From Desulfomonilia bacterium (lineage in GTDB: Bacteria > Desulfobacterota > Desulfomonilia > UBA1062): DNA of 64,000 bases. The notes beneath the pieces are model-generated. The model saw nothing but the letters and a program-made list of their open reading frames with translations, was not told the origin of the DNA and did no database searches. The translations under genes and the position numbers were made by a program. Location: contig JBEKDT010000001.1 of assembly GCA_050014195.1 (NCBI GenBank), positions 149,341 through 213,340 of the forward strand, written 5' to 3'. Below are positions 60 through 16,212 of this stretch, in pieces. Each line of letters opens with the position of its first letter. Positions within the stretch are counted from its first letter, which is position 1.

Positions 60-145
60 TGCCTTGCACTCAATATCCGGATATACTGCAATCGTGCATC
101 AAATATTGGATATGCTGCAAAAGTGCAGTATAGTAATTGTTAGGC
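60..145 (+). other. candidate integron attI site (direct repeats plus simple site ending GTTAGGC)
   Basis: Near-identical direct repeats atatccggatatactgcaa (73-91) and atattggatatgctgcaa (103-120), small inverted repeat ctgcaaaagtgcag (115-128), and a GTTRRRY core GTTAGGC at 139-145. No L''/L' boxes of the array attC family are present. The R'' of the first attC (GCCTAAC, ~1287) is the reverse complement of this core. Confidence 0.4.
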
Positions 146-208
146 TAAGAGGTAATATTTCAAAATGAGCTAGATAAAAAGCAACTTCTAATATGAATGG
201 AGTGATAA

Positions 209-1267
209 ATGAAAATTGAATTTATAAATCATAAATCCTGTATATTATTTGTCTTCATCGTAGCATGTCTTCTTTCACCTAGAATATCTCTGTCAGAATC
301 AGATCTTCCAGACGACAATCTAGCCTACCCGGTACTGTTAATAAGCAAGGAGGGAGGGACAGGAAGTGGCTTTTTCTATAATAAGGATGAAGCTATATAT
401 CTAATAACAGCAAGACACGTTCTATTCAATGAAACGTCTATACGTGTACCAGAAGCAGTTATTGTCCCGAAAAATCTAAGGTGTAAGTTATATTGTATAG
501 AGGATAAAGGGAAAAAAGATAAAAAGGAATTCATACTCACTTTCTATGGTGTCATGTTGGAGAGCGAAAAAAACGAACTTATTAAGGCGACTCCAAAGAC
601 TGATAACTTCAACTTCATTCCAGTTATTGAACGACTTTATAAAGAATCCCAAAAACTTAAACTGAGAAGTACTGAACTTACATTATTCTCATATGATAGA
701 AAGGTTAACAAAGGTGGAATAAACGAATTCGAAGTTCAACTGATGGATCTTTATAATAACGGTCAAATTAAATACCACCCAACACATGATGTTGCTTTTA
801 TTAGAATTGGAATCCCTAAAAAAGTAAAAGGCGAAGATATAATGAAATTGCAGAAAGGAGTAATAAAGAAACAAGGGACAGGGGTGGGTGGCTTAAGTAA
901 AGACAACTTCAAACTTTTTAAGGATGTTATCGTGGGCAACCAAGTGTTCGTTTTTGGTTATCCTACATCAATATCAGGAATAAACCCGTGGCTTGATACT
1001 AAATTACCTTTGCTCAGAAAAGGGACTATCGCTGGAAAAAATGAAAATCTTAATGCAATCATATTGGACTGTCCAGCCTTTCAAGGAAATAGTGGTGGAC
1101 TTGTAATAGAAGTTGAACAAGAATCAATTGATAAAATAAAATATAAAGCAATTGGTTTGATTACAAATTTAGTGCCTTATGCAGGTGCATGGATTCAGAA
1201 TTCGGGTTATTCCATCGTTGTCCCTATGGATTTCGTAGAGGAATTATTAAATGCACAATCTAAATAA
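209..1267 (+). CDS. secreted trypsin-like (S1 chymotrypsin-fold) serine protease; cassette 1, attI-proximal
   Basis: 352-aa ORF with an N-terminal hydrophobic signal-like segment. Catalytic motifs TARHV (His) and GNSGG (Ser; a GDSGG variant) are present. RBS GGAGTGA lies upstream of the ATG. The ORF is ~33% GC. Confidence 0.75.
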   Translation: MKIEFINHKSCILFVFIVACLLSPRISLSESDLPDDNLAYPVLLISKEGGTGSGFFYNKDEAIYLITARHVLFNETSIRVPEAVIVPKNLRCKLYCIEDKGKKDKKEFILTFYGVMLESEKNELIKATPKTDNFNFIPVIERLYKESQKLKLRSTELTLFSYDRKVNKGGINEFEVQLMDLYNNGQIKYHPTHDVAFIRIGIPKKVKGEDIMKLQKGVIKKQGTGVGGLSKDNFKLFKDVIVGNQVFVFGYPTSISGINPWLDTKLPLLRKGTIAGKNENLNAIILDCPAFQGNSGGLVIEVEQESIDKIKYKAIGLITNLVPYAGAWIQNSGYSIVVPMDFVEELLNAQSK

Positions 1268-1286
1268 CAATGTTTTGGCTATCATA

Positions 1287-1343
1287 GCCTAACCATCGCA
1301 TCCACCGGACGGCTAAAGCCGCCGGTGATGCACATCGTTCGCC
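1287..1343 (+). repeat. attC 1
   Basis: R'' GCCTAAC, L'' caccggacgg, L' gccggtgatgc, R' GTTCGCC. R'' equals the revcomp of GTTAGGC at 139-145. Confidence 0.8.
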
Positions 1344-1361
1344 AAATAATCTGAGATTAAA

Positions 1362-2423
1362 ATGAGTACGCCAATAATAACAACATCTGATTCAATTAAA
1401 ATTGCAAGAGGTGTATTCGAGAGATCAAAGTACGAGGTTACTGAAGAATGCATTATAGACCTTTCAAAAAATATAACACTAGTAGAAGAAAAAGGTTTAT
1501 CCAAGTTAAACAATAGGCTGATTGCAGGCGGTAGACATATCCAGGATACACTAGTCGAGCATAATTATGCTGCCACAATATTACCTATTCTTGGACCTGA
1601 GGCATCTATCGAATATGAACCCGAGGGTTTACATCGACCTCCAGACTTTAAAATAGTTAGGGAAGGCATTACTTATTGGATTCAAATAAAAAATTTATCA
1701 ATATTGGAAAGAGAGAATCGGCAAGATAAGATTCTCCAAGAAATTGAGAGACAGATAAGAGAAATCGAAGTCGGGATGTTCCTTGGATGCCAACTCAATG
1801 ATGACTTTTCTAGAGATGATATCGAATCACTTTTAACTTTTGTTAGGAGTATTATTAATGAAGCTAATATAGGGCAAGCGTACTTCTTTCCAAATGAGTC
1901 AACACCCAAAGCAAAAATAGAATTCTGGCTTCCAAATAAATTACAATTATCTCATCTCACCTTGGGCATATCCGGTGACATTGATATTGTTGAACAGACA
2001 GGGCTTGCTCAAGAACAAATAAAAAACAGTATCGTTAATGCAGCAGGTGCTTTTAAATGGATTTCTGATGAAAAAACTATCAATCTCATAGCCATGGACT
2101 GTGGCCGATATGATGATATTGATATTTGTGATGCATTATTTGGAACAGAATATGATGAAATATCTCAGAGCGGTAGACATTGTTGGTGTCGAAAAGAAAA
2201 TGGTTTATTTAAAAAATCCCCGTATGATGAAACAGTATTCGGTGTGATTTCACTTAGGAAAAAAGATAAGTGGGCCCCTATTATTAGCACATATACAATG
2301 TCCTTTTTCTTGAATGATACTTATAAAGATTCTCTTGATTGTGTAACGAGCCTTTTCCCTTTCGTGATAATTGTTCAATATAATATGAGACCCCCTATAG
2401 GCCATGCCAATTTCATAATCTAA
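1362..2423 (+). CDS. hypothetical protein (possible PD-(D/E)xK-like core EYEPEG..PDFKI..IQIK); cassette 2
   Basis: 353-aa ORF filling the cassette between attC1 and attC2. It is AT-rich like cassette 1. No recognisable family; the nuclease-like motif is a weak visual match only. Confidence 0.6.
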   Translation: MSTPIITTSDSIKIARGVFERSKYEVTEECIIDLSKNITLVEEKGLSKLNNRLIAGGRHIQDTLVEHNYAATILPILGPEASIEYEPEGLHRPPDFKIVREGITYWIQIKNLSILERENRQDKILQEIERQIREIEVGMFLGCQLNDDFSRDDIESLLTFVRSIINEANIGQAYFFPNESTPKAKIEFWLPNKLQLSHLTLGISGDIDIVEQTGLAQEQIKNSIVNAAGAFKWISDEKTINLIAMDCGRYDDIDICDALFGTEYDEISQSGRHCWCRKENGLFKKSPYDETVFGVISLRKKDKWAPIISTYTMSFFLNDTYKDSLDCVTSLFPFVIIVQYNMRPPIGHANFII

Positions 2424-2454
2424 AAAATGGAATAAGATATTGGGGGAGAATAAA

Positions 2455-2514
2455 GGCGAACAAATCATTTCAGCGGACGCGGCGGGGCCGCGCCGCTGAT
2501 GCCCGCCGTTCGGT
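2455..2514 (+). repeat. attC 2
   Basis: R'' GGCGAAC (revcomp of the upstream R' GTTCGCC), L'' cagcggacg, L' gccgctgatgc, R' GTTCGGT. Confidence 0.85.
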
Positions 2515-2522
2515 GACAAGAT

Positions 2523-3584
2523 ATGATGAAATTGATTGATCTAGGTTTTGATCCCTGGTTTGAAGCACATGTCGATGACATGCGCCGAGAGGATCAAGGA
2601 ATTGCACGTGTGTCAGCAGTTGACCGCAACTCGTACATTATCAGGAATGAGATCAGAGAGATCCCAGCTGAACTTGCAGGGAAGTTCTATTTCCATGTTG
2701 AGTCCTCGATTGAGCTGCCATGTGTCGGCGATTGGGTCACCGTGCAGTATCATAATGATGACACCTCGGCAATCATCCATGGGATTTTTCCACGAAGGAC
2801 GTTTTTACGCCGCAAACGTGCCGGCGTAGAAGTGGACTACCAGATGATTGCAGCCAACATTGACATCGCTTTCATTGTCCAGTCATGTCACTTTGACTTT
2901 AATCTACCTAGACTGAATCGGTATTTAGTAATGGCAGCTGACGGACATGTTGAGCCGATTGTCATTCTTGCCAAGACGGACTTGATCTCCCACGATGAGC
3001 TGCAACAGAAGCTTGCGGCTATTAGACAGGCTGGCATCACGACGAGAGTTATTGCTCTCAGTAACATAACCGGCTCCGGGTTTGACGAATTCCAGCAGGT
3101 ATTAATGTCGGGGCGCACATATTGCCTGCTCGGGTCATCCGGAGTCGGCAAGACTACACTGATCAACCATCTGATTGGACGAGATGATCTTGATACTAAA
3201 GCTGTCAGTGGAACAGGAGAAGGCACACACACAACAGCGCGTCGGCAACTCATTGTTCTTGATAAAGGCATGATGTTCATTGATACACCTGGAATGAGAG
3301 AATTAGGCCTTCTGGGCGCCAGTGAGGGAGTAAACAAAGGGTTTGAAGATATTATTGAGCTTTCCATGACTTGTCGCTATGCCGATTGCAGCCATACTCA
3401 GGAATCAGACTGCGCAGTTCTTACTGCAATTACAAACGGCGAGTTGAGTGAAGAGCGCTATTCTAGTTATTTGAAACTCAGGAAAGAGTCAGAGCACTAT
3501 GAGATGTCGTACTTGGACAAACGTAAAAAGGACAGGGCATTCGGACGCTTCGTTAAGACAGCAAAGAAGAATATGAAAAAATGA
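2523..3584 (+). CDS. RsgA/YjeQ-family circularly permuted ribosome-biogenesis GTPase paralog; cassette 3
   Basis: N-terminal OB-like segment, then G4 (LAKTDL; AKTD in place of NKxD), G1 (GSSGVGKTTLIN) and G3 (DTPG) in permuted order. C-terminal zinc-finger motif CRYADCSHTQESDC. Bounded by attC2 and attC3. Confidence 0.8.
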   Translation: MMKLIDLGFDPWFEAHVDDMRREDQGIARVSAVDRNSYIIRNEIREIPAELAGKFYFHVESSIELPCVGDWVTVQYHNDDTSAIIHGIFPRRTFLRRKRAGVEVDYQMIAANIDIAFIVQSCHFDFNLPRLNRYLVMAADGHVEPIVILAKTDLISHDELQQKLAAIRQAGITTRVIALSNITGSGFDEFQQVLMSGRTYCLLGSSGVGKTTLINHLIGRDDLDTKAVSGTGEGTHTTARRQLIVLDKGMMFIDTPGMRELGLLGASEGVNKGFEDIIELSMTCRYADCSHTQESDCAVLTAITNGELSEERYSSYLKLRKESEHYEMSYLDKRKKDRAFGRFVKTAKKNMKK

Positions 3585-3593
3585 ATGCCGTGC

Positions 3594-3652
3594 ACCGAAC
3601 AATCGGCTCCAGCGGACGCGGTGAAACGCGCCGCTGACCCATGCCGTTCGGC
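3594..3652 (+). repeat. attC 3
   Basis: R'' ACCGAAC (revcomp of GTTCGGT), L'' cagcggacg, L' gccgctgac, R' GTTCGGC. Confidence 0.85.
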
Positions 3653-3668
3653 AGGTGAGGCGCTTATA

Positions 3669-4640
3669 ATGGCACCACGCAAAGAAGACATCCCGGAATG
3701 GCGTCAGTTCGAGCAATTAGTGGCCAGAATCGAGGCTGATGCTGGTCCTCTCGGTTTGATCGTGACTTCTCCTGATCGCATAAAGTGCAGGACCACTGGA
3801 CGCTTACGCGAGGTCGATGCAAGTGTGCGAACACAGATAGGGACATCGAGCATTCTGATCACGATTGAATGCCGGAAACGTCGAGTAAAGCAAGACGTTA
3901 CTTGGATTGAGCAACTTTCGACCAAAAAACATGCGATCGGGGCTGCCCGCACTATTGCCGTTAGTTCCTCCGGGTTTTCTCAGGAAGCTGAAGCAGCGGC
4001 CCTCCAGCACGGCATAGATCTGCGACGATTATCCGATGTATCCGCCGCAGAGATAAACGAACTAATAAGGCTAGATTTCGTTTTATTTACACACAAAAGA
4101 TGCGCCCTGGCTCGTGTTGGCCTCCGACTTTTCCGGTCTTTGGACTGGACGGTGCCCGATCCAGAAAACGTAGACCTTATTTTACCGCCAAGCACGGACC
4201 CGTTTGCCACTATCTTCAGGAATACGGAGACAGGAGCGACTTGGTCGCTCAATGACCTATGGCTGCAATTGCAAGAAGTAACTAATCCGTTTGCCGATGT
4301 CGAGAAGGGCTGCGCTCCAGTTATCAAAACTGCTTGTTTTCCTTTTCCTGGCAATGTCATCGTGAACACTCCAGACGGGCAGAAAAAGATTGGAGATGTG
4401 TTGCTTAGCGTGGCGCTGTCGCTTGAAGTGGAGCAAGTTGATCTGGAATCCGCCAAGAAAGTTGAATATACGTCTCCAGATGGTGCCGCGATCCAACGAG
4501 TGGAGTTTGCCTCTCGTGAACCCGGCGCAGAGGATTGGCATCTTTCGCTACAGATTCCCAAGGATTCAGTGGATATAAGCCAGCTCAGAACAGGAGGGAA
4601 CTGGCCAGTAACAAAGCAAACTGATCAAAAGGGCCACTGA
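3669..4640 (+). CDS. Mrr-like restriction-endonuclease-fold (PD-(D/E)xK) protein with an uncharacterised C-terminal domain; cassette 4
   Basis: N-terminal motif W..FEQLVARI...G......SPD......T......D...R......ILITIECRKR resembles the Mrr_cat nuclease core. RBS GGTGAGG precedes the ATG at 3669. The track ORF start at 3585 lies inside attC3 and is rejected. Confidence 0.6.
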   Translation: MAPRKEDIPEWRQFEQLVARIEADAGPLGLIVTSPDRIKCRTTGRLREVDASVRTQIGTSSILITIECRKRRVKQDVTWIEQLSTKKHAIGAARTIAVSSSGFSQEAEAAALQHGIDLRRLSDVSAAEINELIRLDFVLFTHKRCALARVGLRLFRSLDWTVPDPENVDLILPPSTDPFATIFRNTETGATWSLNDLWLQLQEVTNPFADVEKGCAPVIKTACFPFPGNVIVNTPDGQKKIGDVLLSVALSLEVEQVDLESAKKVEYTSPDGAAIQRVEFASREPGAEDWHLSLQIPKDSVDISQLRTGGNWPVTKQTDQKGH

Positions 4641-4684
4641 GTCGGTGGGTTCAATCTGCCAACTGCGCGTGCTGATAGCGATAA

Positions 4685-4743
4685 GCCGAACCAGTAAATT
4701 CAGCGGACGCAAAAAGCCGCGCCGCTGATGCCCACCGTTCGGT
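4685..4743 (+). repeat. attC 4
   Basis: R'' GCCGAAC (revcomp of GTTCGGC), L'' cagcggacg, L' gccgctgatgc, R' GTTCGGT. Confidence 0.85.
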
Positions 4744-4764
4744 GTCTAAGGAGGAGGCGTAATA

Positions 4765-5013
4765 ATGAATGGGAATAAAGGTGACCACCCATTAACAGAT
4801 ATCCTTATCCATAATATTGAAGTCTATGGCAAAGAAGCAGATGATCTGATTCGTAAGATTAGTTCCTTATCAAGCAGGAGAGAACTAGATGAGTGGTGGG
4901 AAAAGGAAATTAACTGGTCATCAGATAAAACACTAGCCTTACAGAAATCTCAATTGAGATACGAAGAACTTCTTGATCGAGCAAGAAAAAGTGGATGGGA
5001 AATTGATGAGTAA
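4765..5013 (+). CDS. hypothetical 82-aa protein; cassette 5
   Basis: Strong RBS AAGGAGGAGG. The ORF fills the cassette between attC4 and attC5. Confidence 0.6.
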   Translation: MNGNKGDHPLTDILIHNIEVYGKEADDLIRKISSLSSRRELDEWWEKEINWSSDKTLALQKSQLRYEELLDRARKSGWEIDE

Positions 5014-5015
5014 TC

Positions 5016-5109
5016 ACCGAACAAGCAAATCCAGCGGACCACTGGGGCCGTTTGTCCTTGCTGATTCAACGCTCACCTGCCCCAGTGGCCGCTGATCCGC
5101 ACGTTAGCC
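5016..5109 (+). repeat. attC 5 (long variant, ~94 bp)
   Basis: R'' ACCGAAC, extended stem ccagcggaccactgggg / ccccagtggccgctgat, R' GTTAGCC. Confidence 0.8.
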
Positions 5110-5116
5110 AGGAGAA

Positions 5117-5998
5117 GTGATGAATTATTTCTCATACAATACTGATGGTGGGCAACGTAGGTTCGATGTCCTAATCAAAAAAGGACTAGCTGCAACTAGT
5201 GGAGATGAGAAGTTTGGTAAACAACTTGGCAAGCTTAATATAGATGACATTCTTCTCATGTATGAGGATGGATTAGGAATTGTTGCCATCGGAGAAGTTC
5301 AAGAAGAATGGGACGGGAAACCTTATAGTAAACCCATATACTATATTCCCGGTAAAGAGTTTCCCGAAGGTGCAAATGAATATAGAATAAAGGTCAAATG
5401 GTTTCTAAATATCTCTGATTCTCCATTGAGCGTTAAGGAACTAAAAGAGCGTATTGGTTACATTCCACGTGGTGCAGTAACACCATTCATTAAATGGAGG
5501 TATGAGATTGAAAAAATTATTGCTGAACTTAGAGCTCGCAACCCAGAAACTGTTCAAGATGCTATTGATGATCTTGAATCTCATAAAAGAGAGTTTAAGT
5601 TACTCGATAAAACTGAGCAAGAGTCAATTATCAAAAGCCGAATTGGCCAAGGGATATTTCGAGAAGAGCTTATCAAAATCTGGGGTAGCTGTTCTGTAAC
5701 CGGGCTAACCAATCTTTCTCTGTTGCGGGCTTCTCATATAAAACCATGGCGGGAGTGCTCTAATCAGGAACGCTTAGATCCGATGAACGGACTTTTACTG
5801 CATCCTACTTTGGATCATTTGTTTGATTCTGGATTTGTCACATTTGATGCTGATGGGAAAATCCTTATATCAAGGAAGTTATCGGAAAAAGATGTTGAGA
5901 TCCTGCATATTGACCAAAATAGTTATTTGAGGATAATGCCACGAAGGTTAAAGAACTACATGCAGTATCATCGAAAGAATGTTTTTAAACCTGGCTAA
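5117..5998 (+). CDS. HNH (HNH_2-type) endonuclease fused to an N-terminal EVE/PUA-like putative modified-base-binding domain; cassette 6
   Basis: C-terminal motif LLRASHIKPW...NGLLLHPTLDHLFDSGFVTF is typical of the HNH_2 nuclease family. The N-terminal ~140 aa (DDILLMYEDGLGIVAIGEV ... YRIKVKW) has an EVE-like pattern. RBS GGAGAAG. Confidence 0.65.
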   Translation: MMNYFSYNTDGGQRRFDVLIKKGLAATSGDEKFGKQLGKLNIDDILLMYEDGLGIVAIGEVQEEWDGKPYSKPIYYIPGKEFPEGANEYRIKVKWFLNISDSPLSVKELKERIGYIPRGAVTPFIKWRYEIEKIIAELRARNPETVQDAIDDLESHKREFKLLDKTEQESIIKSRIGQGIFREELIKIWGSCSVTGLTNLSLLRASHIKPWRECSNQERLDPMNGLLLHPTLDHLFDSGFVTFDADGKILISRKLSEKDVEILHIDQNSYLRIMPRRLKNYMQYHRKNVFKPG

Positions 5999-6049
5999 CC
6001 AGCCACTTCAGCCGACGGGCTACGCCCGCGGCTGACCGGCACGTTGGGC
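5993..6049 (+). repeat. attC 6
   Basis: R'' GGCTAAC (revcomp of GTTAGCC), L'' cagccgacgg, L' gcggctgac, R' GTTGGGC. Confidence 0.8.
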
Positions 6050-6101
6050 ATAGAATCTGCGGGGACCACCGTTTCCTCGCTTTTTCAAAGGAGAATTCAA
6101 T

Positions 6102-6416
6102 ATGCGTTGGAATCATTACGTCTCTTACTTTTTTGGCGGAGCCTTTCTCACAAATGCGATCCCGCATTTTGTGAGCGGCGTTACAGGGCACCCTTTCCAA
6201 AGCCCTTTTGCCTCTCCCCCGGGGCAAGGGCTCTCTTCCGCCGTGGTGAATGTGCTTTGGGGCTCGCTCAACCTTGTTATCGGCTACTTGCTCGTATGCC
6301 GCATTGGACAATTTGAGTTGCGTCGGACAAGGCATGTTCTCATTGCGGGATTGGGGGGCCTACTCATGGCCGTGATGCTTGCGCATGTATTTGGTCGCTT
6401 CTATGGGGGGCTCTGA
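6102..6416 (+). CDS. small integral membrane protein (104 aa); cassette 7
   Basis: Three hydrophobic segments. RBS AAAGGAGAA. Confidence 0.6.
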   Translation: MRWNHYVSYFFGGAFLTNAIPHFVSGVTGHPFQSPFASPPGQGLSSAVVNVLWGSLNLVIGYLLVCRIGQFELRRTRHVLIAGLGGLLMAVMLAHVFGRFYGGL

Positions 6417-6433
6417 AATATGGGAAACGATTT

Positions 6434-6496
6434 GCCCAACAATTCATTCCAGCGGACGGGCCACACGGTGGCCCGCCGCTGAATTTGTCGTTGGGC
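6434..6496 (+). repeat. attC 7
   Basis: R'' GCCCAAC (revcomp of GTTGGGC), L'' cagcggacgg, L' gccgctgaa, R' GTTGGGC. Confidence 0.85.
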
Positions 6497-6532
6497 ATAA
6501 TACGTAATTTATGATTCTTAGGGAGAACTATC

Positions 6533-7333: not shown

Positions 7334-7358
7334 ATGTGGACGGTTCTACCAGTGGCTG

Positions 7359-8524: not shown

Positions 8525-8526
8525 AA

Positions 8527-9151: not shown

Positions 9152-9158
9152 TGGGGTC

Positions 9159-9256: not shown

Positions 9257-9272
9257 GAAGGAGAATAAAAGA

Positions 9273-9692
9273 ATGAGAGATGCGAGCAAAACAATTGGCA
9301 ATCTGATCGAAAGAGCAAGCGTTTCTATTATCAGTTCCGTTGATGAAGACGGTTTTCCTAATTCAAAGGCAATGCTTCCACCGAGGAAAAGGGAAGGCAT
9401 AAAGCATATCTTCTTCACGACCAATACATCCTCAATGAGAGTAAGGCAATATCTCAATAACCCGAAAGCGTGCGTATATTTCTTTGATAATAGATTCTTC
9501 AAGGGCATTATGCTGAGGGGCACCATGGAAGTCCTGCATGATAGCGCATCTAAGGAAATGATCTGGAAGCATGGCGACGAAATGTATTATCCAAAGGGTG
9601 TAACTGATCCCGATTACTGCGTGCTCAGGTTCACTGCTCAAAGTGGAAGGTATTACAGCAATTTTAAATCTGAGAATTTTGAAGTTGAGTAG
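9273..9692 (+). CDS. pyridoxamine 5'-phosphate oxidase-like FMN-binding protein; cassette 12
   Basis: Split-barrel PNPOx-family pattern (SVDEDGFPNSKAM...ACVYFFD...MLRGTMEVL). RBS GAAGGAGAA. Confidence 0.6.
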   Translation: MRDASKTIGNLIERASVSIISSVDEDGFPNSKAMLPPRKREGIKHIFFTTNTSSMRVRQYLNNPKACVYFFDNRFFKGIMLRGTMEVLHDSASKEMIWKHGDEMYYPKGVTDPDYCVLRFTAQSGRYYSNFKSENFEVE

Positions 9693-9706
9693 AGACCCAA
9701 GCTATC

Positions 9707-9770
9707 ACATAACCAGCGCATCCAGGCAGACGCGTCGTGTCCGCCGCGCCGCTGATTCGCAATGTTCGGT
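9707..9770 (+). repeat. attC 12
   Basis: R'' ACATAAC (revcomp of GTTATGT at 9250; one mismatch to the revcomp of GTTATGC at 8577), L' gccgctgattcgc, R' GTTCGGT. Confidence 0.75.
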
Positions 9771-9904
9771 ACACTTGATTGGATCGTCATCGTGACAAGA
9801 GGGTGTTCTTTTGTTGCTGCATATCTGAGCGCTCATAGTTGTTTTCCGTTCGCTGCTTTTCAGGCGTACGGTCAGCCAATATAGAGAATGCTGGAGGATG
9901 AACC

Positions 9905-10198
9905 ATGAACGACAATTTCGAAAAGAGGCTTTGGGCCGCAGCGCTGGCAGGATGGTGGACCTTGCTGGTGGCCGCAGGGGTTCTGATGCTTCAGTGGATC
10001 GTCTACCTGCTGGTTATGTCCGGACGACCCATGTGGTTTCTTTCCCTCTGGGGGCCTGATGTCAGCTGGCATGACGTTCATAACATCTGGTTTCTGGGCT
10101 TAGGGTTCTTCAAGGTCTGCTTGCTACTTTTGGCGGTTGTGGTTCTCTGGCTTACCTTGTGGGCCAGGCGATTACGAAAAGGGGCTGGCAGTTCATGA
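9905..10198 (+). CDS. small membrane protein (97 aa); cassette 13
   Basis: Trp-rich hydrophobic helices. RBS GGAGGATGA. Preceded by a 135-nt untranslated leader. Confidence 0.55.
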   Translation: MNDNFEKRLWAAALAGWWTLLVAAGVLMLQWIVYLLVMSGRPMWFLSLWGPDVSWHDVHNIWFLGLGFFKVCLLLLAVVVLWLTLWARRLRKGAGSS

Positions 10199-10294
10199 AG
10201 TCTTGAATTCGCTCTCGCTCGCTTTTCCACAAACAGTCAGGTCGTCGCTGCGATCGCAATTAGAGAGCAAAGGACGGAGTTATCTCGTAAGTGC

Positions 10295-10314
10295 GCCCAA
10301 CTAGGGCGTTGGGT
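10295..10314 (+). repeat. minimal R''/R' inverted pair (possible attC remnant)
   Basis: GCCCAAC-tagggc-GTTGGGT with no L boxes. It sits between two ORFs that may belong to a single cassette. Confidence 0.3.
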
Positions 10315-10334
10315 CAAAGGAAGGAGATACAAGA

Positions 10335-10757
10335 ATGTTCAGAAGAATAGTGTGTTTTGCAGTCATTGGACTTGTCCTTGGTACTGCTGCTCTCATGGCT
10401 GACGAATCCGATAGGGGGAAGGCTGCAGTTGCTTCAGCTGAAGAATGGCTTGGAATTGTTGATGAAGGTAACTATATTGAGAGCTGGAAGGAATCGTCTG
10501 AATATTTTCAGCAAGCCATCAAACAGGATCAGTGGGAACAAGCAGTTCAGGCGGTACGGAAGCCCCTCGGCAAATTGGTTTCAAGGAAAGTGATGAGTGC
10601 CTCATACAGAACGTCTCTCCCGGGAGCACCCGATGGGCAGTATGTGGTAATCAAATTTAACACCTGGTTCGAGAATAAAAAATCAGCTATTGAGACAGTT
10701 ACTCCAAAGATGGACAAAGATGGGATGTGGAGAGTTTCCGGTTACTACATCAAATGA
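10335..10757 (+). CDS. secreted DUF4019-like protein; cassette 13/14
   Basis: Signal peptide, then EEWLGIVDEGNY..SW..S...FQ pattern. Strong RBS AAGGAAGGAGA. Confidence 0.55.
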   Translation: MFRRIVCFAVIGLVLGTAALMADESDRGKAAVASAEEWLGIVDEGNYIESWKESSEYFQQAIKQDQWEQAVQAVRKPLGKLVSRKVMSASYRTSLPGAPDGQYVVIKFNTWFENKKSAIETVTPKMDKDGMWRVSGYYIK

Positions 10758-10823
10758 AGACCAGACAATGGCATCCTCGCGGATGCGGGCTGCGCCAGCG
10801 CCGCTGATGCCTGGCTGTTCGAC
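10757..10823 (+). repeat. attC 14
   Basis: Degenerate R'' ACCAGAC (two mismatches to the revcomp of GTTCGGT at 9764), L'' catcctcgcggatgcggg, L' gcgccagcgccgctgatgc, R' GTTCGAC. Confidence 0.7.
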
Positions 10824-10831
10824 GGAGAGAA

Positions 10832-11500
10832 ATGAAGAAGAAAACATTGCTGAGTTGGAGTAGCGGGAAGGACAGCGCATGGGCGCTTCACCTGCTCCAA
10901 CAAGATCCGCAGATTGAGCTTCTCGGCATGTTTACTGTAATGAATCAAAAATACAGTCGTGTGTCGATGCACGCCACCCGGTTGGAGATGCTTCAGCGTC
11001 AAGCCGAGGCAGTAGGTCTGCCGATCCAAACGATCAGTCTTCCCGACCCGTGCACAAACGAGCAATACGACGCTATCATGCGACACTTCGTCACCGAGTC
11101 TGTCAACAAGGGGATTGAGTGCATGGCATTCGGAGATCTGTTCCTTGAGGACGTCCGAAAGTATCGGGAGAATCAACTGAAAGGGAGTGGGATCGATCCT
11201 CTTTTCCCGTTGTGGGGAATCCCCACGAGCGACCTGGCTGAGCAAATGTTGTCAGCAGGACTCGAAGCCTATGTCAGCAGTGTTGATCTCAAGAAATTGC
11301 CTTCGCGTTTTGCCGGACAAAAATGGTCAAGGGACTTGATTGTGGAATTTCCCAAGGATTGCGACCCATGTGGAGAGAACGGGGAAATCCACACGGTCGC
11401 CGTGGGCGGCCCGATGTTTCGGAAAACAGTCCTTGTCAAAGTCGGCGACGTGGTGAATCGAAAAGGATTTGCTTACGCTGACATCATTCCGATTAACTGA
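10832..11500 (+). CDS. PP-loop ATP pyrophosphatase of the MJ0570/Dph6-like family (ATP_bind_4); cassette 15
   Basis: N-terminal LLSWSSGKDS PP-loop. Length and architecture match diphthine-ammonia-ligase-like enzymes. Confidence 0.65.
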   Translation: MKKKTLLSWSSGKDSAWALHLLQQDPQIELLGMFTVMNQKYSRVSMHATRLEMLQRQAEAVGLPIQTISLPDPCTNEQYDAIMRHFVTESVNKGIECMAFGDLFLEDVRKYRENQLKGSGIDPLFPLWGIPTSDLAEQMLSAGLEAYVSSVDLKKLPSRFAGQKWSRDLIVEFPKDCDPCGENGEIHTVAVGGPMFRKTVLVKVGDVVNRKGFAYADIIPIN

Positions 11501-11507
11501 AACGACT

Positions 11508-11565
11508 GTCGAACCAAGGAGTGCAGGCGATGCGATACCCGCGAGCCTGACTCCTGCCGTTGGAG
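11508..11565 (+). repeat. attC 15
   Basis: R'' GTCGAAC (revcomp of GTTCGAC), L''-like gcaggcgatgcg, L' gcgagcctgactcc, R' GTTGGAG. Confidence 0.75.
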
Positions 11566-11572
11566 GTTTGCA

Positions 11573-12121
11573 ATGACCCAAGCATTGTTACTCATAGACA
11601 TTCAGAACGATTACTTCCCTGGCGGGGCAATGGAACTAGTGGGAAGTTCTCCTGCTGCGGCGCAGGCCGGGAAACTACTTCAGGCGTTCAGACAAAAAGC
11701 GCTGAGCGTTATCCACATCCAACACATCTCGACAAGACCAGGAGCGACCTTCTTTTTGCCGAATACCGCTGGGGTACAAATTCACGAGAGCGTAGCTCCC
11801 AACAGTGGCGAAACGGTCTTTCAGAAACACTACCCGAACAGCTTTCGTGAAACACGTCTGCTTGAGCACCTTCGTGAGAATCAAATCTCGCAGCTTGTGA
11901 TCGCAGGGATGATGACCCATATGTGCATTGACACTACCTCACGTGCTGCCACCGACCTTGGCTTCCCGTGCGTTCTGGCTCATGACGCATGCGCTACAAG
12001 AGCTCTGTCGTTTAATGGCGCTACTGTTTCTGCTCAGAGCGTACAAACAGCATTCCTCGCAGCCCTTAATGGCCTGTTTGCCGAAGTGCTGTCAGTGGAG
12101 GAAATATGCACCAACCTCTAA
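11573..12121 (+). CDS. isochorismatase-family cysteine hydrolase; cassette 16
   Basis: ALLLIDIQNDYF N-terminus, and a catalytic Cys in MMTHMCIDTT. Confidence 0.75.
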   Translation: MTQALLLIDIQNDYFPGGAMELVGSSPAAAQAGKLLQAFRQKALSVIHIQHISTRPGATFFLPNTAGVQIHESVAPNSGETVFQKHYPNSFRETRLLEHLRENQISQLVIAGMMTHMCIDTTSRAATDLGFPCVLAHDACATRALSFNGATVSAQSVQTAFLAALNGLFAEVLSVEEICTNL

Positions 12122-12178
12122 CGAGCTGATCCGGCAGACCGGGGCTAAGCCCCGCGCCGCTGATACCTGCCGTGAGAG
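12116..12178 (+). repeat. attC 16 (mutated R' box GTGAGAG)
   Basis: R'' CTCTAAC, L'' cagaccgggg, L' ccccgcgccgctgatacc. The R' reads cGTGAGAG, whereas GTTAGAG is expected from the next cassette's R'' CTCTAAC. Confidence 0.7.
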
Positions 12179-12190
12179 GGCAAGGACCCT

Positions 12191-12988
12191 ATGCAACCAG
12201 TGCAACAGAAATGGAATGCTGAGGATTACGCGAAGAATTCTTCGGCACAGCTACAGTGGGCGCAGGAGCTTATTTCAAAACTCTTCTTGCAGGGTTGCGA
12301 ATCTGTGCTTGATATCGGATGCGGAGATGGGAAGATCAGCGCCCAACTTGCGCTGGCTGCCAAGAACGGAAACGTGCTGGGCATTGATCTATCTGAAGAC
12401 ATGATTCGGCTTGCCTCAGAGCAGTTTCCTTCAGCGAAATACCCCAACCTGTCTTTCTTGCGTATGGACGCAACAGGCATTCGCCTTTCTGAGAGATTCG
12501 ACGTCGCATTCTCAAACGCCGCCCTTCATTGGGTGAAAAACCATATTGCAGTTCTTCGAGGCGTGCATGCCTGCCTCAAGTCCGGTGGCAAGATATTGTT
12601 TCAGATGGGCGGCCGCGGAAACGCAACTGAGGTTTTTGGCGCCATTGAGAAAGTTTTACGGCACCCTCGGTGGCGGCGGTACTATAAAGACTTCACACCA
12701 CCCTACCACTTTTATGGACCGGAAGAATATGAAGCCTGGCTATTGGAAAGCGGTTTTCGCTCGGTACGTGTTGAACTCGTGCCAAAAGATATGCAGCATG
12801 GTGCGGAGGGGTTTAAGGGTTGGCTACGGACAACTTGGTTCCCCTATACCGACCGCTTGCCGGTCGAACTGCGCGATGCCTTTCTTGCGGAAGTGGTCGA
12901 GACTTATACGGCGGTAAATCCGTTTGACGCTCTCGGCCATACACACGTCAAAATGGTCCGTTTGGAGGTCGAGGCGTATGCCCTCTAA
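12191..12988 (+). CDS. trans-aconitate methyltransferase (Tam)-like SAM-dependent methyltransferase; cassette 17
   Basis: W.AEDY...S..Q..WA N-terminus, SAM motif LDIGCGDG, and Tam-like length and C-terminal region. Confidence 0.65.
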   Translation: MQPVQQKWNAEDYAKNSSAQLQWAQELISKLFLQGCESVLDIGCGDGKISAQLALAAKNGNVLGIDLSEDMIRLASEQFPSAKYPNLSFLRMDATGIRLSERFDVAFSNAALHWVKNHIAVLRGVHACLKSGGKILFQMGGRGNATEVFGAIEKVLRHPRWRRYYKDFTPPYHFYGPEEYEAWLLESGFRSVRVELVPKDMQHGAEGFKGWLRTTWFPYTDRLPVELRDAFLAEVVETYTAVNPFDALGHTHVKMVRLEVEAYAL

Positions 12989-13040
12989 CAATTCGCTCAA
13001 CGCGGACGTGCAAAAGCGCCGGTTAGCTCAAACGTTATGT
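12983..13040 (+). repeat. attC 17
   Basis: R'' CTCTAAC, L'' cgcggacg, L' caaaagcgccgg, R' GTTATGT. Confidence 0.7.
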
Positions 13041-13059
13041 GGCAAATGGGAGAAGACAA

Positions 13060-13743
13060 ATGGCTTACACTTTGGAAAAAGTAGTTCCTTGGGGACGATC
13101 TTTCGACGAATATTTGGCAATGTTTGCATTGTCGGAAGAAGACCTTAGAAAGCGGTTACTAGGATGTGGAGACGGTCCCGCAAGCTTTAATTGTATGATG
13201 AAACGTCGTGGAGGCCATGTAGTTTCTGTCGATCCGATTTACACTTTCAGTGCCGGTGAAATAAGAAGTCGGATAGATGAAACATATGAAGAGGTTATGG
13301 AACAAGCTAGAAAAAACAAACATGAGTTCGTGTGGAGACATATCTCATCAGTTGATGAACTCGGCAAAGTTCGTATGTCTGCTATGAACGACTTTTTGTC
13401 TGATTATGCAGTAGGTTTAAAAGAAGGTCGTTATGTAGACGCGAGTTTGCCTACGCTTCCATTCTCAGATCGAGAATTTGACATTGCTTTATGTTCGCAC
13501 TTTCTCTTTCTTTACAGCGAGCACCTTTCAGAAGATTTTCATATCCAGTCAATTGAAGAACTCTGCCGAGTTGCATCTGAAGTAAGGATATTCCCTCTGT
13601 TGGAGTTGGGAGCCAAAGAATCAAGACATCTCAAGATAGTCGTGGATAGACTTGAAAAAGGTGGTTTTGTTGTCGATATGAAGAAAGTGCCTTATGAGTT
13701 TCAAAAAGGTGGAAACGAAATGTTGAGGGTTACAGCCACATAA
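13060..13743 (+). CDS. class I SAM-dependent methyltransferase; cassette 18
   Basis: LGCGDGPASFN motif I and acidic motif II. RBS GGGAGAAG before the ATG at 13060. Confidence 0.6.
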   Translation: MAYTLEKVVPWGRSFDEYLAMFALSEEDLRKRLLGCGDGPASFNCMMKRRGGHVVSVDPIYTFSAGEIRSRIDETYEEVMEQARKNKHEFVWRHISSVDELGKVRMSAMNDFLSDYAVGLKEGRYVDASLPTLPFSDREFDIALCSHFLFLYSEHLSEDFHIQSIEELCRVASEVRIFPLLELGAKESRHLKIVVDRLEKGGFVVDMKKVPYEFQKGGNEMLRVTAT

Positions 13744-13807
13744 CAAATCAATGCACCTGAGAGCAAATCGCTGTGCGATTTCCGGCAAGTGATTTCTGCC
13801 GTTGGAG
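13738..13807 (+). repeat. attC 18
   Basis: R'' ACATAAC (revcomp of GTTATGT), stem gagcaaatcgc / gcgatttc, R' GTTGGAG. Confidence 0.75.
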
Positions 13808-13824
13808 GTCCGTTGGAGATAACA

Positions 13825-14397
13825 ATGAATCAGAAAAAATATGCGCTGATCATAATTGATATGCAAAATGATTTTGTTTTATCTGGTACACCAGCGTGCG
13901 TTGCTGGTGCTTATGCCACGATCCCGTGTATAAAAAGGTTGCTTGATTTTTACAGGGCAAATGGATGGCCGGTATTTCATGTCATACGGGAATATCGTGC
14001 AGATGGAAGTGATATCGAGTTTACCCGCCTCCAGGGTTTTCTTAACAACAAGCGCTATGCAGTGCCTGGCACGAAAGGTTGTGAAATTGTGGAAAGCCTT
14101 GCACCAGTTGAAGGAGAGTATAGGGTCATAAAGAATAGATTCAGTGGTTTTATGAATACGGAGTTAGATTTTATGTTGAGAAGGGTCGGGGCAACGCACC
14201 TGGTCATATGCGGAACTCAGTATCCTAACTGTGTCCGGGCTACTATCTTTGATGCCATTGCATATGGGTATCCTGTAATCAACATTACCGATGCCACATC
14301 AGCACAGACTCCACAAATTGCAGATGCAAATATCGTAGATTTAAAGAATATCGGAGTTGACTGTATTTCGTTAGATGAGTTTATGAAATTATTCTGA
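13825..14397 (+). CDS. isochorismatase-family hydrolase (second, divergent copy); cassette 19
   Basis: ALIIIDMQNDF and LVICGTQYPNCVRAT catalytic-Cys region. Confidence 0.75.
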   Translation: MNQKKYALIIIDMQNDFVLSGTPACVAGAYATIPCIKRLLDFYRANGWPVFHVIREYRADGSDIEFTRLQGFLNNKRYAVPGTKGCEIVESLAPVEGEYRVIKNRFSGFMNTELDFMLRRVGATHLVICGTQYPNCVRATIFDAIAYGYPVINITDATSAQTPQIADANIVDLKNIGVDCISLDEFMKLF

Positions 14398-14411
14398 AAT
14401 GGGAGAGAATC

Positions 14412-14472
14412 TCTCCAACAAACGAAGCACCGGACGGGGCAAGCGCCAGGCCGATGATCTCCGTCGTTATGC
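14412..14472 (+). repeat. attC 19
   Basis: R'' CTCCAAC (revcomp of GTTGGAG), L'' caccggacgg, L' gccgatgatc, R' GTTATGC. Confidence 0.85.
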
Positions 14473-14503
14473 GCCAGTATTAGTAGAATATAGGTGATAG
14501 CAA

Positions 14504-14989
14504 ATGGATGATCTTACTATCCGGAATGTAGAGCCGACTGATTATCAGCCTGTCATTTCTGTGCTGAATGACTGGTGGGGCGGTCGGAATATGAGTGACA
14601 TGCTCCCGAAACTCTTCTTTGTTCACTTTTGTGAGACAAGCTTTGTGGCTGAGGCTGAAGGAAAGATCGTCGGGTTCCTCATAGGTTTTTTATCACAGAC
14701 TTTCCCGGATCAGGCCTATATACACTTTGCCGGGGTTCACCCAGATTATCGAAGGAAAGGATTAGCGGGCAATCTCTACAGGCATTTTTTTGAGATTTCC
14801 CGGAACCATGGCTGCAGGGTCGTCCACTGCGTAACCTCGCCTGTTAATAAAGCTGCAATCGCATTTCACCTTCGGATGGGGTTCAGCATTGAACAGGGTG
14901 ATAAGCTCATCGAAGGTATTTCAGTTGCTGAGAACTATGATGGGTACGGTAGCGACCGGGTTTTGTTCATAAAATTGCTCGGCACATAA
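14504..14989 (+). CDS. GNAT-family N-acetyltransferase; cassette 20
   Basis: Acetyl-CoA binding motif VHPDYRRKGLAGNL. Confidence 0.75.
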   Translation: MDDLTIRNVEPTDYQPVISVLNDWWGGRNMSDMLPKLFFVHFCETSFVAEAEGKIVGFLIGFLSQTFPDQAYIHFAGVHPDYRRKGLAGNLYRHFFEISRNHGCRVVHCVTSPVNKAAIAFHLRMGFSIEQGDKLIEGISVAENYDGYGSDRVLFIKLLGT

Positions 14990-15049
14990 CAAGGGCATCC
15001 AGGCGGAAGCGGGCTGCCCAGCGCCGCCGCTGATGCACACCGTTATCTC
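14984..15049 (+). repeat. attC 20 (R' box GTTATCT)
   Basis: R'' GCATAAC (revcomp of GTTATGC), L'' ccaggcggaagcggg, L' gccgccgctgatgc, R' GTTATCT. Confidence 0.8.
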
Positions 15050-15067
15050 CCAATATTCAATCCCTGC

Positions 15068-15110
15068 TTGACATTCAAAATGGTATGATTAATTATCATA
15101 CCGGAGGCGG
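15068..15110 (+). promoter_or_regulatory. mazEF cassette promoter with palindromic operator
   Basis: TTGACA at 15068-15073. Near-perfect palindrome GTATGATTAATTATCATAC (15083-15101) overlaps the -10 region, and RBS GGAGG lies 5 nt before the ATG. Confidence 0.5.
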
Positions 15111-15113
15111 AAA

Positions 15114-15356
15114 ATGAGATCAGCCAAGGTTGCAATCACGATTGATGACGAAACCCTTCAAAGGCTTGACCGTCTTGTGAAGGAACATGTTTTTCCTAAT
15201 CGAAGCAAGGCGATACAAGAGGCCGTACAGGATAAAATTAAACGTATTGAGAAAACCAGGCTCGCCCGGGAATGCGCAAAGCTTGACCCTTTATATGAGC
15301 AAGCACTTGCTGACGAAGGAATTTCTGAGGATATGAACGAATGGCCAGAATATTAA
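15114..15356 (+). CDS. mazE: ribbon-helix-helix (MazE/CopG-like) antitoxin; cassette 21
   Basis: 80 aa with an N-terminal RHH pattern ([19 protein letters not shown]). It overlaps the downstream toxin gene. Confidence 0.7.
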
Positions 15357-15679
15357 GAGGTGATATCCGCCTCGCTGATCTGAATCCCACAAAAGGGAAA
15401 GAACAAGCCGGCATCAGACCCGTACTTATCTTAAGTCATGATGTCTTCAATGAAAGATCGGGAACTGTTATAGCCATGGCAATCACAAGCCAGCCGCAGC
15501 GCGCCGGATTTCCTCTCACATTTGAACTTGAGTCCGACAAGCTCCCGAAAAAATCATGGGTGAAAATCAGCCAAGTAAGAACACTGTCTGTACAGCGTAT
15601 TGGGAAGAAGATCACCAATCTACCACCTGAAATCCTCGACCACCTTATTGATGGTCTGGGTGAGATTATTGGAAGATAA
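15341..15679 (+). CDS. mazF: MazF/PemK-family endoribonuclease toxin; cassette 21
   Basis: [25 protein letters not shown]...AITSQ pattern of MazF/PemK. Confidence 0.8.
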
Positions 15680-15736
15680 CTTCTCACTGCACCAGACCGC
15701 AGCTTACGCCGCGGCCGGTGATCTCACGCGTTAGAG
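15673..15736 (+). repeat. attC 21
   Basis: R'' AGATAAC is the exact revcomp of the unusual upstream R' GTTATCT. L'' cagaccgcagc, L' gcggccggtgatc, R' GTTAGAG. Confidence 0.85.
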
Positions 15737-15749
15737 CCCTCACCAACAA

Positions 15750-16157
15750 ATGATAGAGTCAATAAGTCACATTACTTTCATCGTCAAAGATGTTGAAAGA
15801 ACGGGGCATTTCCTGCGATCGATCTTCGATGCCGAAGAGGTCTATGACAGTGCGGGGAAGAACTTTTCAATTTCATACGAGAAGTTCTTTATTATCGGGG
15901 GTGCTTGGATAGCGGTTATGCAAGGTGAGCCATTGTCGGAGCGTTCTTATAACCATGTTGCATTCAAGGTATCCGACTCTGAGTTTGATGAGTATGTATC
16001 AAGACTAAAGCGACTTGGGATCGAGGTGGAACCAGGTCGTGACCGGGTTAGTGGTGAGGCCCGGTCAATATATTTCTATGATTACGACAACCATCTCTTC
16101 GAGCTGCACACCGGCACGCTTCATGAGAGGCTGGTGCATTATTCCAAAGGGAAATAA
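15750..16157 (+). CDS. fosX: FosX/FosB-like fosfomycin-resistance protein (VOC/glyoxalase superfamily); cassette 22
   Basis: 135 aa, co-linear with Listeria FosX as recalled from memory. Shared blocks include SHITFIVKD, YNHVAF, PGRDRV.GE.RSIYFYD.DNHLFELHTGTL and ERL..Y. Confidence 0.65.
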   Translation: MIESISHITFIVKDVERTGHFLRSIFDAEEVYDSAGKNFSISYEKFFIIGGAWIAVMQGEPLSERSYNHVAFKVSDSEFDEYVSRLKRLGIEVEPGRDRVSGEARSIYFYDYDNHLFELHTGTLHERLVHYSKGK

Positions 16158-16159
16158 AG

Positions 16160-16212
16160 CTCTAACAAAAGCCTGCGGACGGCTACAGCCGCCGCTGATG
16201 CGTGTCGAAAAT
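16160..16212 (+). repeat. attC 22 (last site of the array; degenerate R')
   Basis: R'' CTCTAAC (revcomp of GTTAGAG), L'' ctgcggacgg, L' gccgccgctgatgc, then gtgtcgaaaa in place of a clean GTTRRRY. Conserved core-genome genes begin immediately after. Confidence 0.75.

Follow-up and report, generated by a model that had tools for sequence, protein, structure and literature searches.

A 22-cassette chromosomal integron array without a nearby integrase gene in a Desulfomonilia-like Thermodesulfobacteriota lineage

We examined a 64,000-nucleotide stretch of contig JBEKDT010000001.1 from a Desulfomonilia bacterium (hereafter the window), whose first 16 kb carry an array of integron gene cassettes. 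A 22-cassette array on the + strand had been predicted here from the sequence alone, and our analysis confirmed it. The cassettes share one orientation, occupy window 139–16213, and run from 140 to 16207 behind a first GTTAGGC heptamer at 139–145; the array holds 24 open reading frames (ORFs), all on the + strand. Reading window 1–17000, we counted 22 junctions after that first heptamer, made up of 20 recognizable attC sites and two decayed relics. The attC sites, measured from the start of R'' to the end of R', are 54–132 nt long, lie 0–30 nt past a stop codon and are co-oriented with the ORFs. No integron integrase gene (intI) was found near them, and the locus is very probably a sedentary chromosomal integron (SCI) cassette array that lost its cis-encoded integrase, that is, a large attC-site cluster that has no integrase (CALIN) in an uncultured member of the Thermodesulfobacteriota (Desulfomonilia-like). 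The features are, in order along the window:

1–145 (+): attI-like entry site, the window part of a conserved block of ~300 bp; core GTATAGTAATT leading directly into GTTAGGC at 128–145
140–1343 (+): cassette 1 (GC 35%); ORF 209–1267, trypsin-like serine protease; attC 1287–1343 (GCCTAAC...GTTCGCC), its R'' the exact complement of the 5' GTTAGGC
1338–2514 (+): cassette 2 (GC 37%); ORF 1362–2423, 353 aa, no family match; attC 2455–2514
2509–3652 (+): cassette 3; ORF 2523–3584, RsgA-type GTPase paralogue (TIGR00157, 159 bits); attC 3594–3652
3647–4743 (+): cassette 4; ORF 3669–4640, weak Mrr_cat match; attC 4685–4743
4738–5109 (+): cassette 5; ORF 4765–5013, 82 aa, no assigned family; long attC 5016–5109 (94 nt)
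5104–6049 (+): cassette 6; ORF 5117–5998, HNH endonuclease (PADLOC HNH, 1.4e-27); attC 5993–6049
6044–6496 (+): cassette 7; ORF 6102–6416, 104 aa, no assigned family; attC 6434–6496
6491–7421 (+): cassette 8; ORF 6533–7333, flavin mononucleotide (FMN) reductase or flavodoxin-like; attC 7359–7421, R'' with 1 mismatch to its 5' junction
7416–8092 (+): cassette 9; BrnT toxin 7495–7776 and putative BrnA 7757–7966; long attC 7961–8092 (132 nt)
8087–8583 (+): cassette 10; ORF 8111–8524, lipoprotein-like, no family match; attC 8527–8583
8578–9256 (+): cassette 11; ORF 8612–9151, DUF3795; decayed attC relic 9161–9256
9251–9770 (+): cassette 12; ORF 9273–9692, PNPOx-like; attC 9707–9770
9765–10314 (+): cassette 13; ORF 9905–10198, 97 aa, no assigned family; miniature relic 10295–10314
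10309–10823 (+): cassette 14; ORF 10335–10757, DUF4019; attC 10760–10823, degraded R'' (ACCAGAC)
10818–11565 (+): cassette 15; ORF 10832–11500, diphthamide-synthase-like ATP-binding domain; attC 11508–11565
11560–12178 (+): cassette 16; ORF 11573–12121, isochorismatase family; attC 12116–12178, mutated R' GTGAGAG
12173–13040 (+): cassette 17; ORF 12191–12988, S-adenosylmethionine (SAM) methyltransferase; attC 12983–13040
13035–13807 (+): cassette 18; ORF 13069–13743, weak methyltransferase match; attC 13738–13807
13802–14472 (+): cassette 19; ORF 13825–14397, isochorismatase family; attC 14413–14472
14467–15048 (+): cassette 20; ORF 14504–14989, GNAT acetyltransferase; attC 14984–15048
15043–15736 (+): cassette 21; ribbon-helix-helix (RHH) antitoxin 15114–15356 and PemK/MazF toxin 15341–15679; attC 15674–15736
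15731–16213 (+): cassette 22; ORF 15750–16157, glyoxalase/VOC family; terminal attC 16160–16213, R' without GTT (G↓AAAATA, the arrow marking the cut position)
16258–17409 (+): aminotransferase gene, the first housekeeping gene of the flank, outside the array

The original prediction had placed a stem-loop after every ORF or ORF pair, which stood for the 20 attC sites and failed at the two relic junctions. It also had the array ending cleanly at 16212; housekeeping genes do come next, while the last site lacks its GTT. Cassette GC measured 35.2–53.5%, not the 33% to 55% given earlier, and the rest of the window averages 49.8%.

We then examined the anatomy of the repeats. Each opens with a heptamer ending in AAC and 7–11 unpaired bases, continues with boxes resembling CAGCGGACG and then GCCGCTGAT on the two sides of a loop, and closes with 6–9 bases and a heptamer beginning with GTT; the formula first offered for these sites had the outer AAC and GTT boxes right and omitted the 7–11 nt unpaired spacer between R and L. 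The AAC box is kept in 19/20 recognizable sites and GTT in 18/20, the exceptions being sites 14, 16 and 22. The R/Y pattern of the core boxes is looser than the textbook consensus, and because the sites deviate from it a strict RYYYAAC...GTTRRRY regular expression found only 1 match on the + strand of the array. Folded with DNA energy parameters, the bottom (−) strands form a 6–7 bp R box, an unpaired spacer of ~8 nt on each side, and an L stem broken by a bulged T, with a second bulge, a G six positions further along, in several sites; a loop of variable sequence comes next. The extrahelical bases anticipated for the bottom strands were seen. In an alignment of 18 sites, the extrahelical-T column holds T in 17/18 and the G column holds G in 14/18, and in minimum free energy folds the T is a single-base bulge in 10/18 sites and T plus G are bulged in 4/18. 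Mean column identity is 59%. A hand-specified structure paired 78% of cells across these 18 sites versus 30–43% with the partners slid by 1–3 columns, and 11 pairs change on both sides, including compensatory changes in the L stem (0/500 shuffles reached the observed covariation). This structure was used in place of RNAalifold on a MAFFT alignment, which gave just 4 pairs because the loops were misaligned.

A covariance model was trained on 18 sites of the array, with the two long sites kept out of training. Both held-out sites were recovered (5016–5109 at 39.7 bits, E = 5e-7; 7961–8092 at 30 bits, E = 1e-4), the terminal site at 16160–16213 scored 36 bits, and related sites were matched in other metagenome-assembled genomes (MAGs). 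Elsewhere in the 74 kb made up of the window and its 10-kb upstream flank (window 16.2–64 kb and the flank itself) the model had no match, nor did it have one in a further 21-kb locus from this organism, and the relics in cassettes 11 and 13 gave no match to it. An Rfam 15 scan of the window at gathering thresholds returned one tRNA only, and Rfam has no usable attC or attI family. We conclude that the array sites are attC sites.

Each cassette carries a second record of its recombination. IntI cuts G↓TT, and therefore the TTRRRY at the 5' end of a cassette pairs with the attC at its 3' end; this crossover and the ownership of the 5' end by the cassette are established integron biology (PMC4889954; Darracq et al.). 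Among the 21 testable cassettes (those with a recognizable R''), the R'' heptamer was the exact reverse complement of the upstream R' in 15/21, rising to 16/21 when only the 4 variable bases were scored (the sixteenth being cassette 17), and R'' matched the 3' R' of its own site in only 2/21. Three further R'' boxes, beyond the five damaged junctions described below, are one base off their partner. Permuting the junctions gave a mean of 1.8 and a maximum of 10 matches, and 0/500,000 permutations reached 16 (p below 2e-6). Exact complementarity had been claimed for at least 17 cassettes; the count is 15–16, the signal is strong and exceeds what shuffled junctions give by chance, and the pattern supports the predicted signature of IntI-type G↓TT crossover. 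The same rule is obeyed at four related loci (L089, L009, L107 and L046).

Hairpins that follow genes might have another origin, as intergenic palindromes resembling repetitive extragenic palindromic (REP) elements or as rho-independent terminators, and the sites here are GC-rich hairpins downstream of ORFs. We regard this explanation as barely credible given the permutation result, the AAC/GTT boxes and the conservation of the bulged T and G columns. The sites are moreover absent from the other 48 kb of the window, have no T-tracts, and are of the same type as sites beside bona fide IntI.

Five of the 22 junctions are damaged: relics 11 and 13, the R'' of site 14, the R' of site 16 and the terminal site. 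Relic 11 (9161–9256) consists of a hairpin with TCTCAAC/GTTGAGA, a degenerate L' and an intact R' GTTATGT, with no recognizable R''. Relic 13 (10295–10314) is a 20-nt miniature, GCCCAAC-TAGGGC-GTTGGGT, in which the L boxes and the loop are missing. The GTGAGAG at site 16 was formerly GTTAGAG, since the downstream R'' reads CTCTAAC. This damage fuses some cassettes permanently and is what relaxed selection on recombination would produce. The hairpin at window 9161–9212 is strong, CCGGGGTCTCAACA...TGTTGAGACCC(TGA)CCCCGG with its perfectly complementary TCTCAAC/GTTGAGA pair, and may be a second miniature attC relic in cassette 11, giving 23 ancestral cassettes.

We sought the missing integrase in the DNA flanking the array. 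Upstream sequence was read from Joint Genome Institute (JGI) contig Ga0427922_0000564 (97,781 bp; L001), found via the cassette 1 protein, on which window position 1 is position 9793; identical copies occur in other samples (four assemblies, different samples, 100% identical). Upstream, 10 kb of sequence holds genes for a rubrerythrin-like protein, M48 and C1 peptidases, a GAF protein, GAPDH and CarB, together with the end of HsdR; the rubrerythrin-like gene is divergent and 454 bp from the first GTT. Downstream, to 64 kb, all genes are housekeeping or lipopolysaccharide (LPS) biosynthesis genes. Pfam annotation of the called genes revealed neither an intact intI nor a pseudogene in this DNA, which extends 10 kb upstream and 48 kb downstream of the array (74 kb in all). 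A tblastn search with IntI1, a query validated beforehand (799.5 bits, full length, NCBIfam NF011946), had no match in the window or in L001–L008; the same search identified integron integrases at two Syntrophales MAG loci (47–48% identity). We further built a hidden Markov model (HMM) from IntI1 and the two MAG integrases and ran it with filters off on the six-frame translations of the window and of L001, L089 and L009, taking every segment of 30 aa or longer; the best E was 0.9. These searches are comparable to the pseudogene test of Cury et al., in which 10 kb was searched on each side (PMC4889954). An intI upstream of position 1, where the original prediction suggested looking, was thus absent from the 10 kb there by both tblastn and HMM.

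Under the definitions in PMC4889954, the locus is a CALIN and not a complete integron because no intI lies nearby. IntegronFinder calls an integron complete when an integrase gene (PF00589 plus the IntI-specific domain) lies within ~4 kb of the array, and none was found in the 10 kb upstream or 48 kb downstream. A CALIN has at least 2 attC sites and no intI or recognizable intI pseudogene nearby (PMC4889954), and here there are 20 attC sites and no IntI signal (best E about 0.9). The description of the array as complete therefore did not hold, five of its 22 junctions also being degraded. Its size is that of an SCI: the published thresholds are more than 19 attC sites (Cury 2016, PMC4889954) or, for complete integrons and CALINs alike, more than 10 cassettes (Darracq et al. 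2024), and this array has 20 model-recognized sites and 22 cassettes. In the survey of Cury et al. 95% of CALINs had no nearby intI pseudogene and only 6.6% exceeded 10 attC sites (PMC4889954).

One alternative is a complete integron with its intI farther than 10 kb upstream on this contig, or an integron from which a rearrangement split off this piece. About 18 kb of the upstream contig is unseen, an inserted island is suggested by a type I restriction-modification gene at the L001 edge, and 27/279 CALINs merged with an integron at a 10-kb threshold (Cury et al., PMC4889954). Such an arrangement is improbable, as attI stays with the array, the syntenic rubrerythrin-like, M48, GAPDH and carB genes stand between attI and the unseen DNA, and a canonical intI abuts attI, as in locus L039.

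The left end of the array could be delimited by comparison with a second locus, L089 (Ga0326728_10004885), found by a metagenome scan and close to the source genome (M48 96%, GAF 98%, GAPDH 96%). L001 and L089 have in common a block of ~300 bp at 86–89% identity that ends exactly at G↓TTA (window 139–142). Its left edge is TTCTTTGACA, at L001 9644 and so 148 bp ahead of the first window position, and has the form of a promoter (TTGACA-18-TATAAA). To the right of G↓TTA the two loci are unrelated and carry different cassettes, and neither has intI. In L089 the first cassette opens with GTTATAC and joins a 271-aa ORF to an attC whose R'' is GTATAAC; the next opens with GTTATGT and holds an FRG-domain ORF, its attC having R'' ACATAAC and R' GTTGGCG. 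Because homology to L089 stops at G↓TTA and is followed by different cassettes with correct R''/R' bookkeeping, the left junction is a recombination point common to both loci and behaves as an attI, with its predicted crossover between G139 and T140. The sharing of the attI core with intI-adjacent junctions, described below, is comparative evidence that supports this identity as the entry site. Both L001 and L089 keep the TTGACA-18-TATAAA site, which faces the array from 290 bp upstream of attI, and we infer that it could serve as the cassette promoter Pc.

Several other elements of this region were noted. The conserved block (L001 9644–9934, window −148 to 142) comprises ~290 nt of non-coding DNA with a possible stem AAACTCC...GGAGTTT and is a possible candidate for a leader or regulatory RNA; an E-value scan of attI and the upstream block against Rfam gave no match. 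We rejected a 57-codon ORF in the block as a gene, its frame being broken by a 1-nt indel in L089, and likewise the block as an ORF-less cassette, as its R'' CTATAAC does not complement the left boundary (GTTCTTT or GATTCTT) and it has no attC-model match. A motif TTGCACTCAATATnnGGATATACTG at window 64–88, containing the palindrome ATATCCGGATAT, recurs in L089 at 10840 (+) and 2260 (−); a host transcription factor, and not an integrase, may be what binds it, as an operator. Direct repeats at attI are doubtful as IntI-binding DR1/DR2: L089 does not conserve the second, and the first is found upstream of an acyl-CoA synthetase gene as well. A short tandem-like motif, cacgaag(a/g)g, is present three times at L001 9570–9605, between the rubrerythrin-like gene and the block; L089 has neither this motif nor any rubrerythrin-like gene. 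The attI-proximal cassettes of L089 (10982–12875), encoding the 271-aa protein without a Pfam match and the FRG-domain protein, look defence-like, as do those of the window.

We next turned to relatives of the locus. A homology search with the M48 gene returned 80 GTDB-species loci, all from Thermodesulfobacteriota (Desulfomonilia, Syntrophales and 'uncultured delta proteobacterium'), with best identities of 81–85%. The rubrerythrin-M48-GAF-GAPDH-CarB synteny is conserved in relatives and the region past the rubrerythrin gene varies. The attI core, GTATAnTAAT[AT] directly followed by GTT, recurs at the array starts of L039, L088 and L107. In the 2 x 2.08 Mb of fetched loci searched for this motif ~5 chance matches are expected; those in L110 and L112 look like chance, and those in L039, L088 and L107 each fall exactly at a cassette boundary. 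In L039 a full integron-integrase ORF starts ~140 bp from the core (GTATATTAATT followed by GTT). In L088 it stands beside a 66-aa N-terminal IntI remnant (tblastn E = 5e-18). In L107 a PIF1/RecD-like helicase gene starts 150 bp from it with no intI between, and the next cassette obeys the rule (GTTATGC/GCATAAC); both L046 and L039 have a homologous helicase (66% identity) directly downstream of their intI. The L046 integrase scores 432 bits on TIGR02249, and its first cassette ends GCCCAAC-CAACAAATCCACCG..., the same attC type as in the window. On these sequence comparisons, the window array would be placed in a Thermodesulfobacteriota integron family with repeated intI loss.

Further features of these loci stand apart from that series. 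A group II intron reverse transcriptase (446 aa) lies just after the first cassette of L088 (10296–11636). Group II introns have a known association with attC sites, and L088 fits it. In L107 the array with its attI core and the helicase gene beside it occupy 11394–18930 and 19067–20638, and the distal attC of the array abuts a C1 peptidase homologue. L009, an 81% relative, has a two-attC mini-array at 8004–8741, in the same chromosomal position beside the rubrerythrin-like gene, with correct bookkeeping (GTTGGCC/GGCCAAC), a BrnT-like/CopG-like toxin-antitoxin cassette and no intI; an MBL-fold hydrolase gene follows, and the locus does not resemble the attI block seen in the window. L072, from a Thermodesulfobacteriota MAG that is more distantly related, has a pair of attC sites belonging to the same family (37 and 29 bits) at 7063–8038, 4–5 kb away from its M48 homologue. 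Of 160 loci collected solely through homology to M48 or the C1 peptidase, 7 contained arrays, a hint that one chromosomal neighbourhood is preferred. We rejected intI near M48 as the ancestral arrangement, as in L046 and L039 intI is ~8 kb from the M48 homologue with no other synteny shared with the window locus.

These comparisons also bear on whether the locus was ever an integron platform. A foreign integrase could have founded the array by inserting cassettes at a secondary site (attG, GWT), a documented route (10.1101/2022.09.11.507474), and the right end, G↓AAAATA, lacks the canonical TT. We consider this very unlikely: the left core matches those of attI sites that, in related MAGs, adjoin intI or what remains of it, GAA departs from GWT, and Loot et al. 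propose the route for lone attC sites with no integrase (SALINs) and small CALINs (10.1101/2022.09.11.507474), far below 22 cassettes.

Taken as an SCI array that lost its integrase, the locus would have been built in the following way. An IntI tyrosine recombinase would join the folded bottom (−) strand attC of circular cassettes to attI at 139/140, cutting G↓TT, so that each cassette would carry a TTRRRY complementing its own R'' and newer cassettes would come to lie nearest attI. The conserved, near-consensus sigma-70-like promoter 290 bp upstream of attI would express the proximal cassettes, which are low-GC and defence-like (protease, GTPase, Mrr-like, HNH endonuclease), and the toxin-antitoxin cassettes 9 and 21 would stabilize the array. 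At some point intI would have been lost from the ancestral platform. Further cassette movement would then need an integrase in trans, because none is encoded nearby and five junctions have decayed.

Four points weigh against this account. The ~18 kb further upstream and the rest of the genome fall outside the searched range, and intI could lie there. The attC model behind the hits was trained on this same array. The promoter is a consensus match only and is absent from a stricter consensus scan, which skipped it because the second hexamer has no T at position 6. Finally, the repeat motif of the attI region is also present upstream of the unrelated acyl-CoA synthetase gene in L089.

What has become of the array since the loss can be read in two ways. 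It may be a frozen fossil, its integrase gone from the genome and the array inert and slowly decaying, a possibility to which we give serious weight, a little short of an even chance. The two relics, the GTT to GTG change at site 16, the degraded R'' at site 14 and the missing GTT at site 22 fit this, as do the clonality of the array across samples and the recurrence of intI loss in the platform family (truncated in L088, absent in L107); against it, 15 junctions are still perfect and the cassettes differ from those of L089 at a shared intI-less junction. Alternatively, the platform may still be active, with an integrase elsewhere in the genome or on a visiting element inserting and excising cassettes at the intI-less attI, which we hold to be possible while leaning against it. 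The same L089 comparison speaks for activity: the two loci share the intI-less 300-bp block, with its left edge at the −35 box, and have entirely different proximal cassettes, and changing the attI-cassette junction needs an integrase. Most attC sites also keep intact R boxes and extrahelical bases, and Cury et al. deem trans mobilization of CALIN cassettes plausible (PMC4889954). Yet no integrase was seen, five junctions are decayed, the 100% identity of four assemblies from different samples gives no population-level sign of shuffling, and the L089 difference could stem from homologous array replacement or independent intI loss. The broader proposal that the Desulfomonilia-like lineage maintains an integrase-free platform of promoter, attI and array, gaining and losing cassettes through a trans integrase, is correspondingly tentative and in our judgement rather unlikely.

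The cargo of the array is typical of the usual repertoire of sedentary chromosomal integrons. The attI-proximal cassettes 1–6 encode the protease, the 353-aa protein, the RsgA-type GTPase, the Mrr-like protein, the 82-aa protein and the HNH endonuclease; apart from HNH, the other defence matches are weak. The other cassettes encode an FMN reductase, DUF3795, PNPOx and DUF4019 proteins, a diphthamide-synthase-like protein, 2 isochorismatases, 2 methyltransferases, a GNAT protein, a glyoxalase and proteins without an assigned family. Two toxin-antitoxin pairs are present (BrnT with its partner in cassette 9; RHH with PemK/MazF in cassette 21), and such cassettes are reported to regulate and stabilize arrays of this kind (PMC13108822). 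The GTPase of cassette 3, a full-length paralogue of a ribosome-biogenesis GTPase carried as a mobile cassette, is unusual cargo and might have a defence or ribosome-targeting function.

Two features outside the array deserve mention. The single tRNA gene of the window (32593–32663, +, 62.6 bits) is its sole Rfam hit. A low-GC stretch at window 59300–62700 (33–35% versus ~50% elsewhere) encodes several glycosyltransferases (GT2, GT1, GT9) along with a Wzy_C-like protein; it has the look of a variable O-antigen/LPS island and no relation to the integron.

Compared with known systems, the array resembles typical CALINs (PMC4889954) in having at least 2 co-oriented attC sites, no intI or pseudogene within 4–10 kb, and a cargo that is mostly unassigned or non-resistance. 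It differs in its 20–22 sites, a size class in which few CALINs fall (6.6% exceed 10), and in keeping an attI-like junction and a promoter-like block, features not normally assessed for CALINs. With SCIs of the Vibrio cholerae superintegron type it shares more than 19 cassettes, one attC family, co-oriented promoterless ORFs and interspersed toxin-antitoxin cassettes, whereas it lacks an adjacent intI and its attC homogeneity is moderate (59%), unlike that of the V. cholerae repeats (VCRs). The Syntrophales MAG integrons have the attI core (L039) and the attC type (L046) in common with the window, but place the integrase directly beside attI. In Xanthomonas chromosomal integrons, intI is inactivated and its pseudogene usually still recognizable. 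Those are likewise lineage-fixed chromosomal arrays outlasting integrase decay, while at the window array no pseudogene is left (for Xanthomonas integrons with inactivated intI, see also 10.1101/2025.06.18.660453). SALIN/attG insertions also lack a local integrase; theirs are single or few cassettes at GWT, in contrast to 22 cassettes at an attI-type site (Loot et al., 10.1101/2022.09.11.507474).

As an ordinary if large example of a CALIN, the locus leaves the current understanding of integrons unchanged. What it contributes is a large, well-resolved array without an integrase from the Thermodesulfobacteriota, anaerobes that have been little studied, and its attI could be mapped through comparative evidence, which is rare among CALINs. 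New here are the break in homology to L089 at G↓TTA and the occurrence of one attI core beside intact, truncated or absent intI. Intact intI in L039, truncated intI in L088 and no intI in L107, L089 and the window, all at one attI type, give a concrete picture of CALIN origin by integrase loss. Many of the cassettes have no assigned role, and they offer candidates in which new functions might be discovered, phage defence possibly among them. That two intI-less relatives differ in their cassettes makes trans servicing of CALINs testable in this group, and if the platform is indeed serviced in trans, a CALIN would be a functional, selected site of expression and storage, not a decaying remnant.

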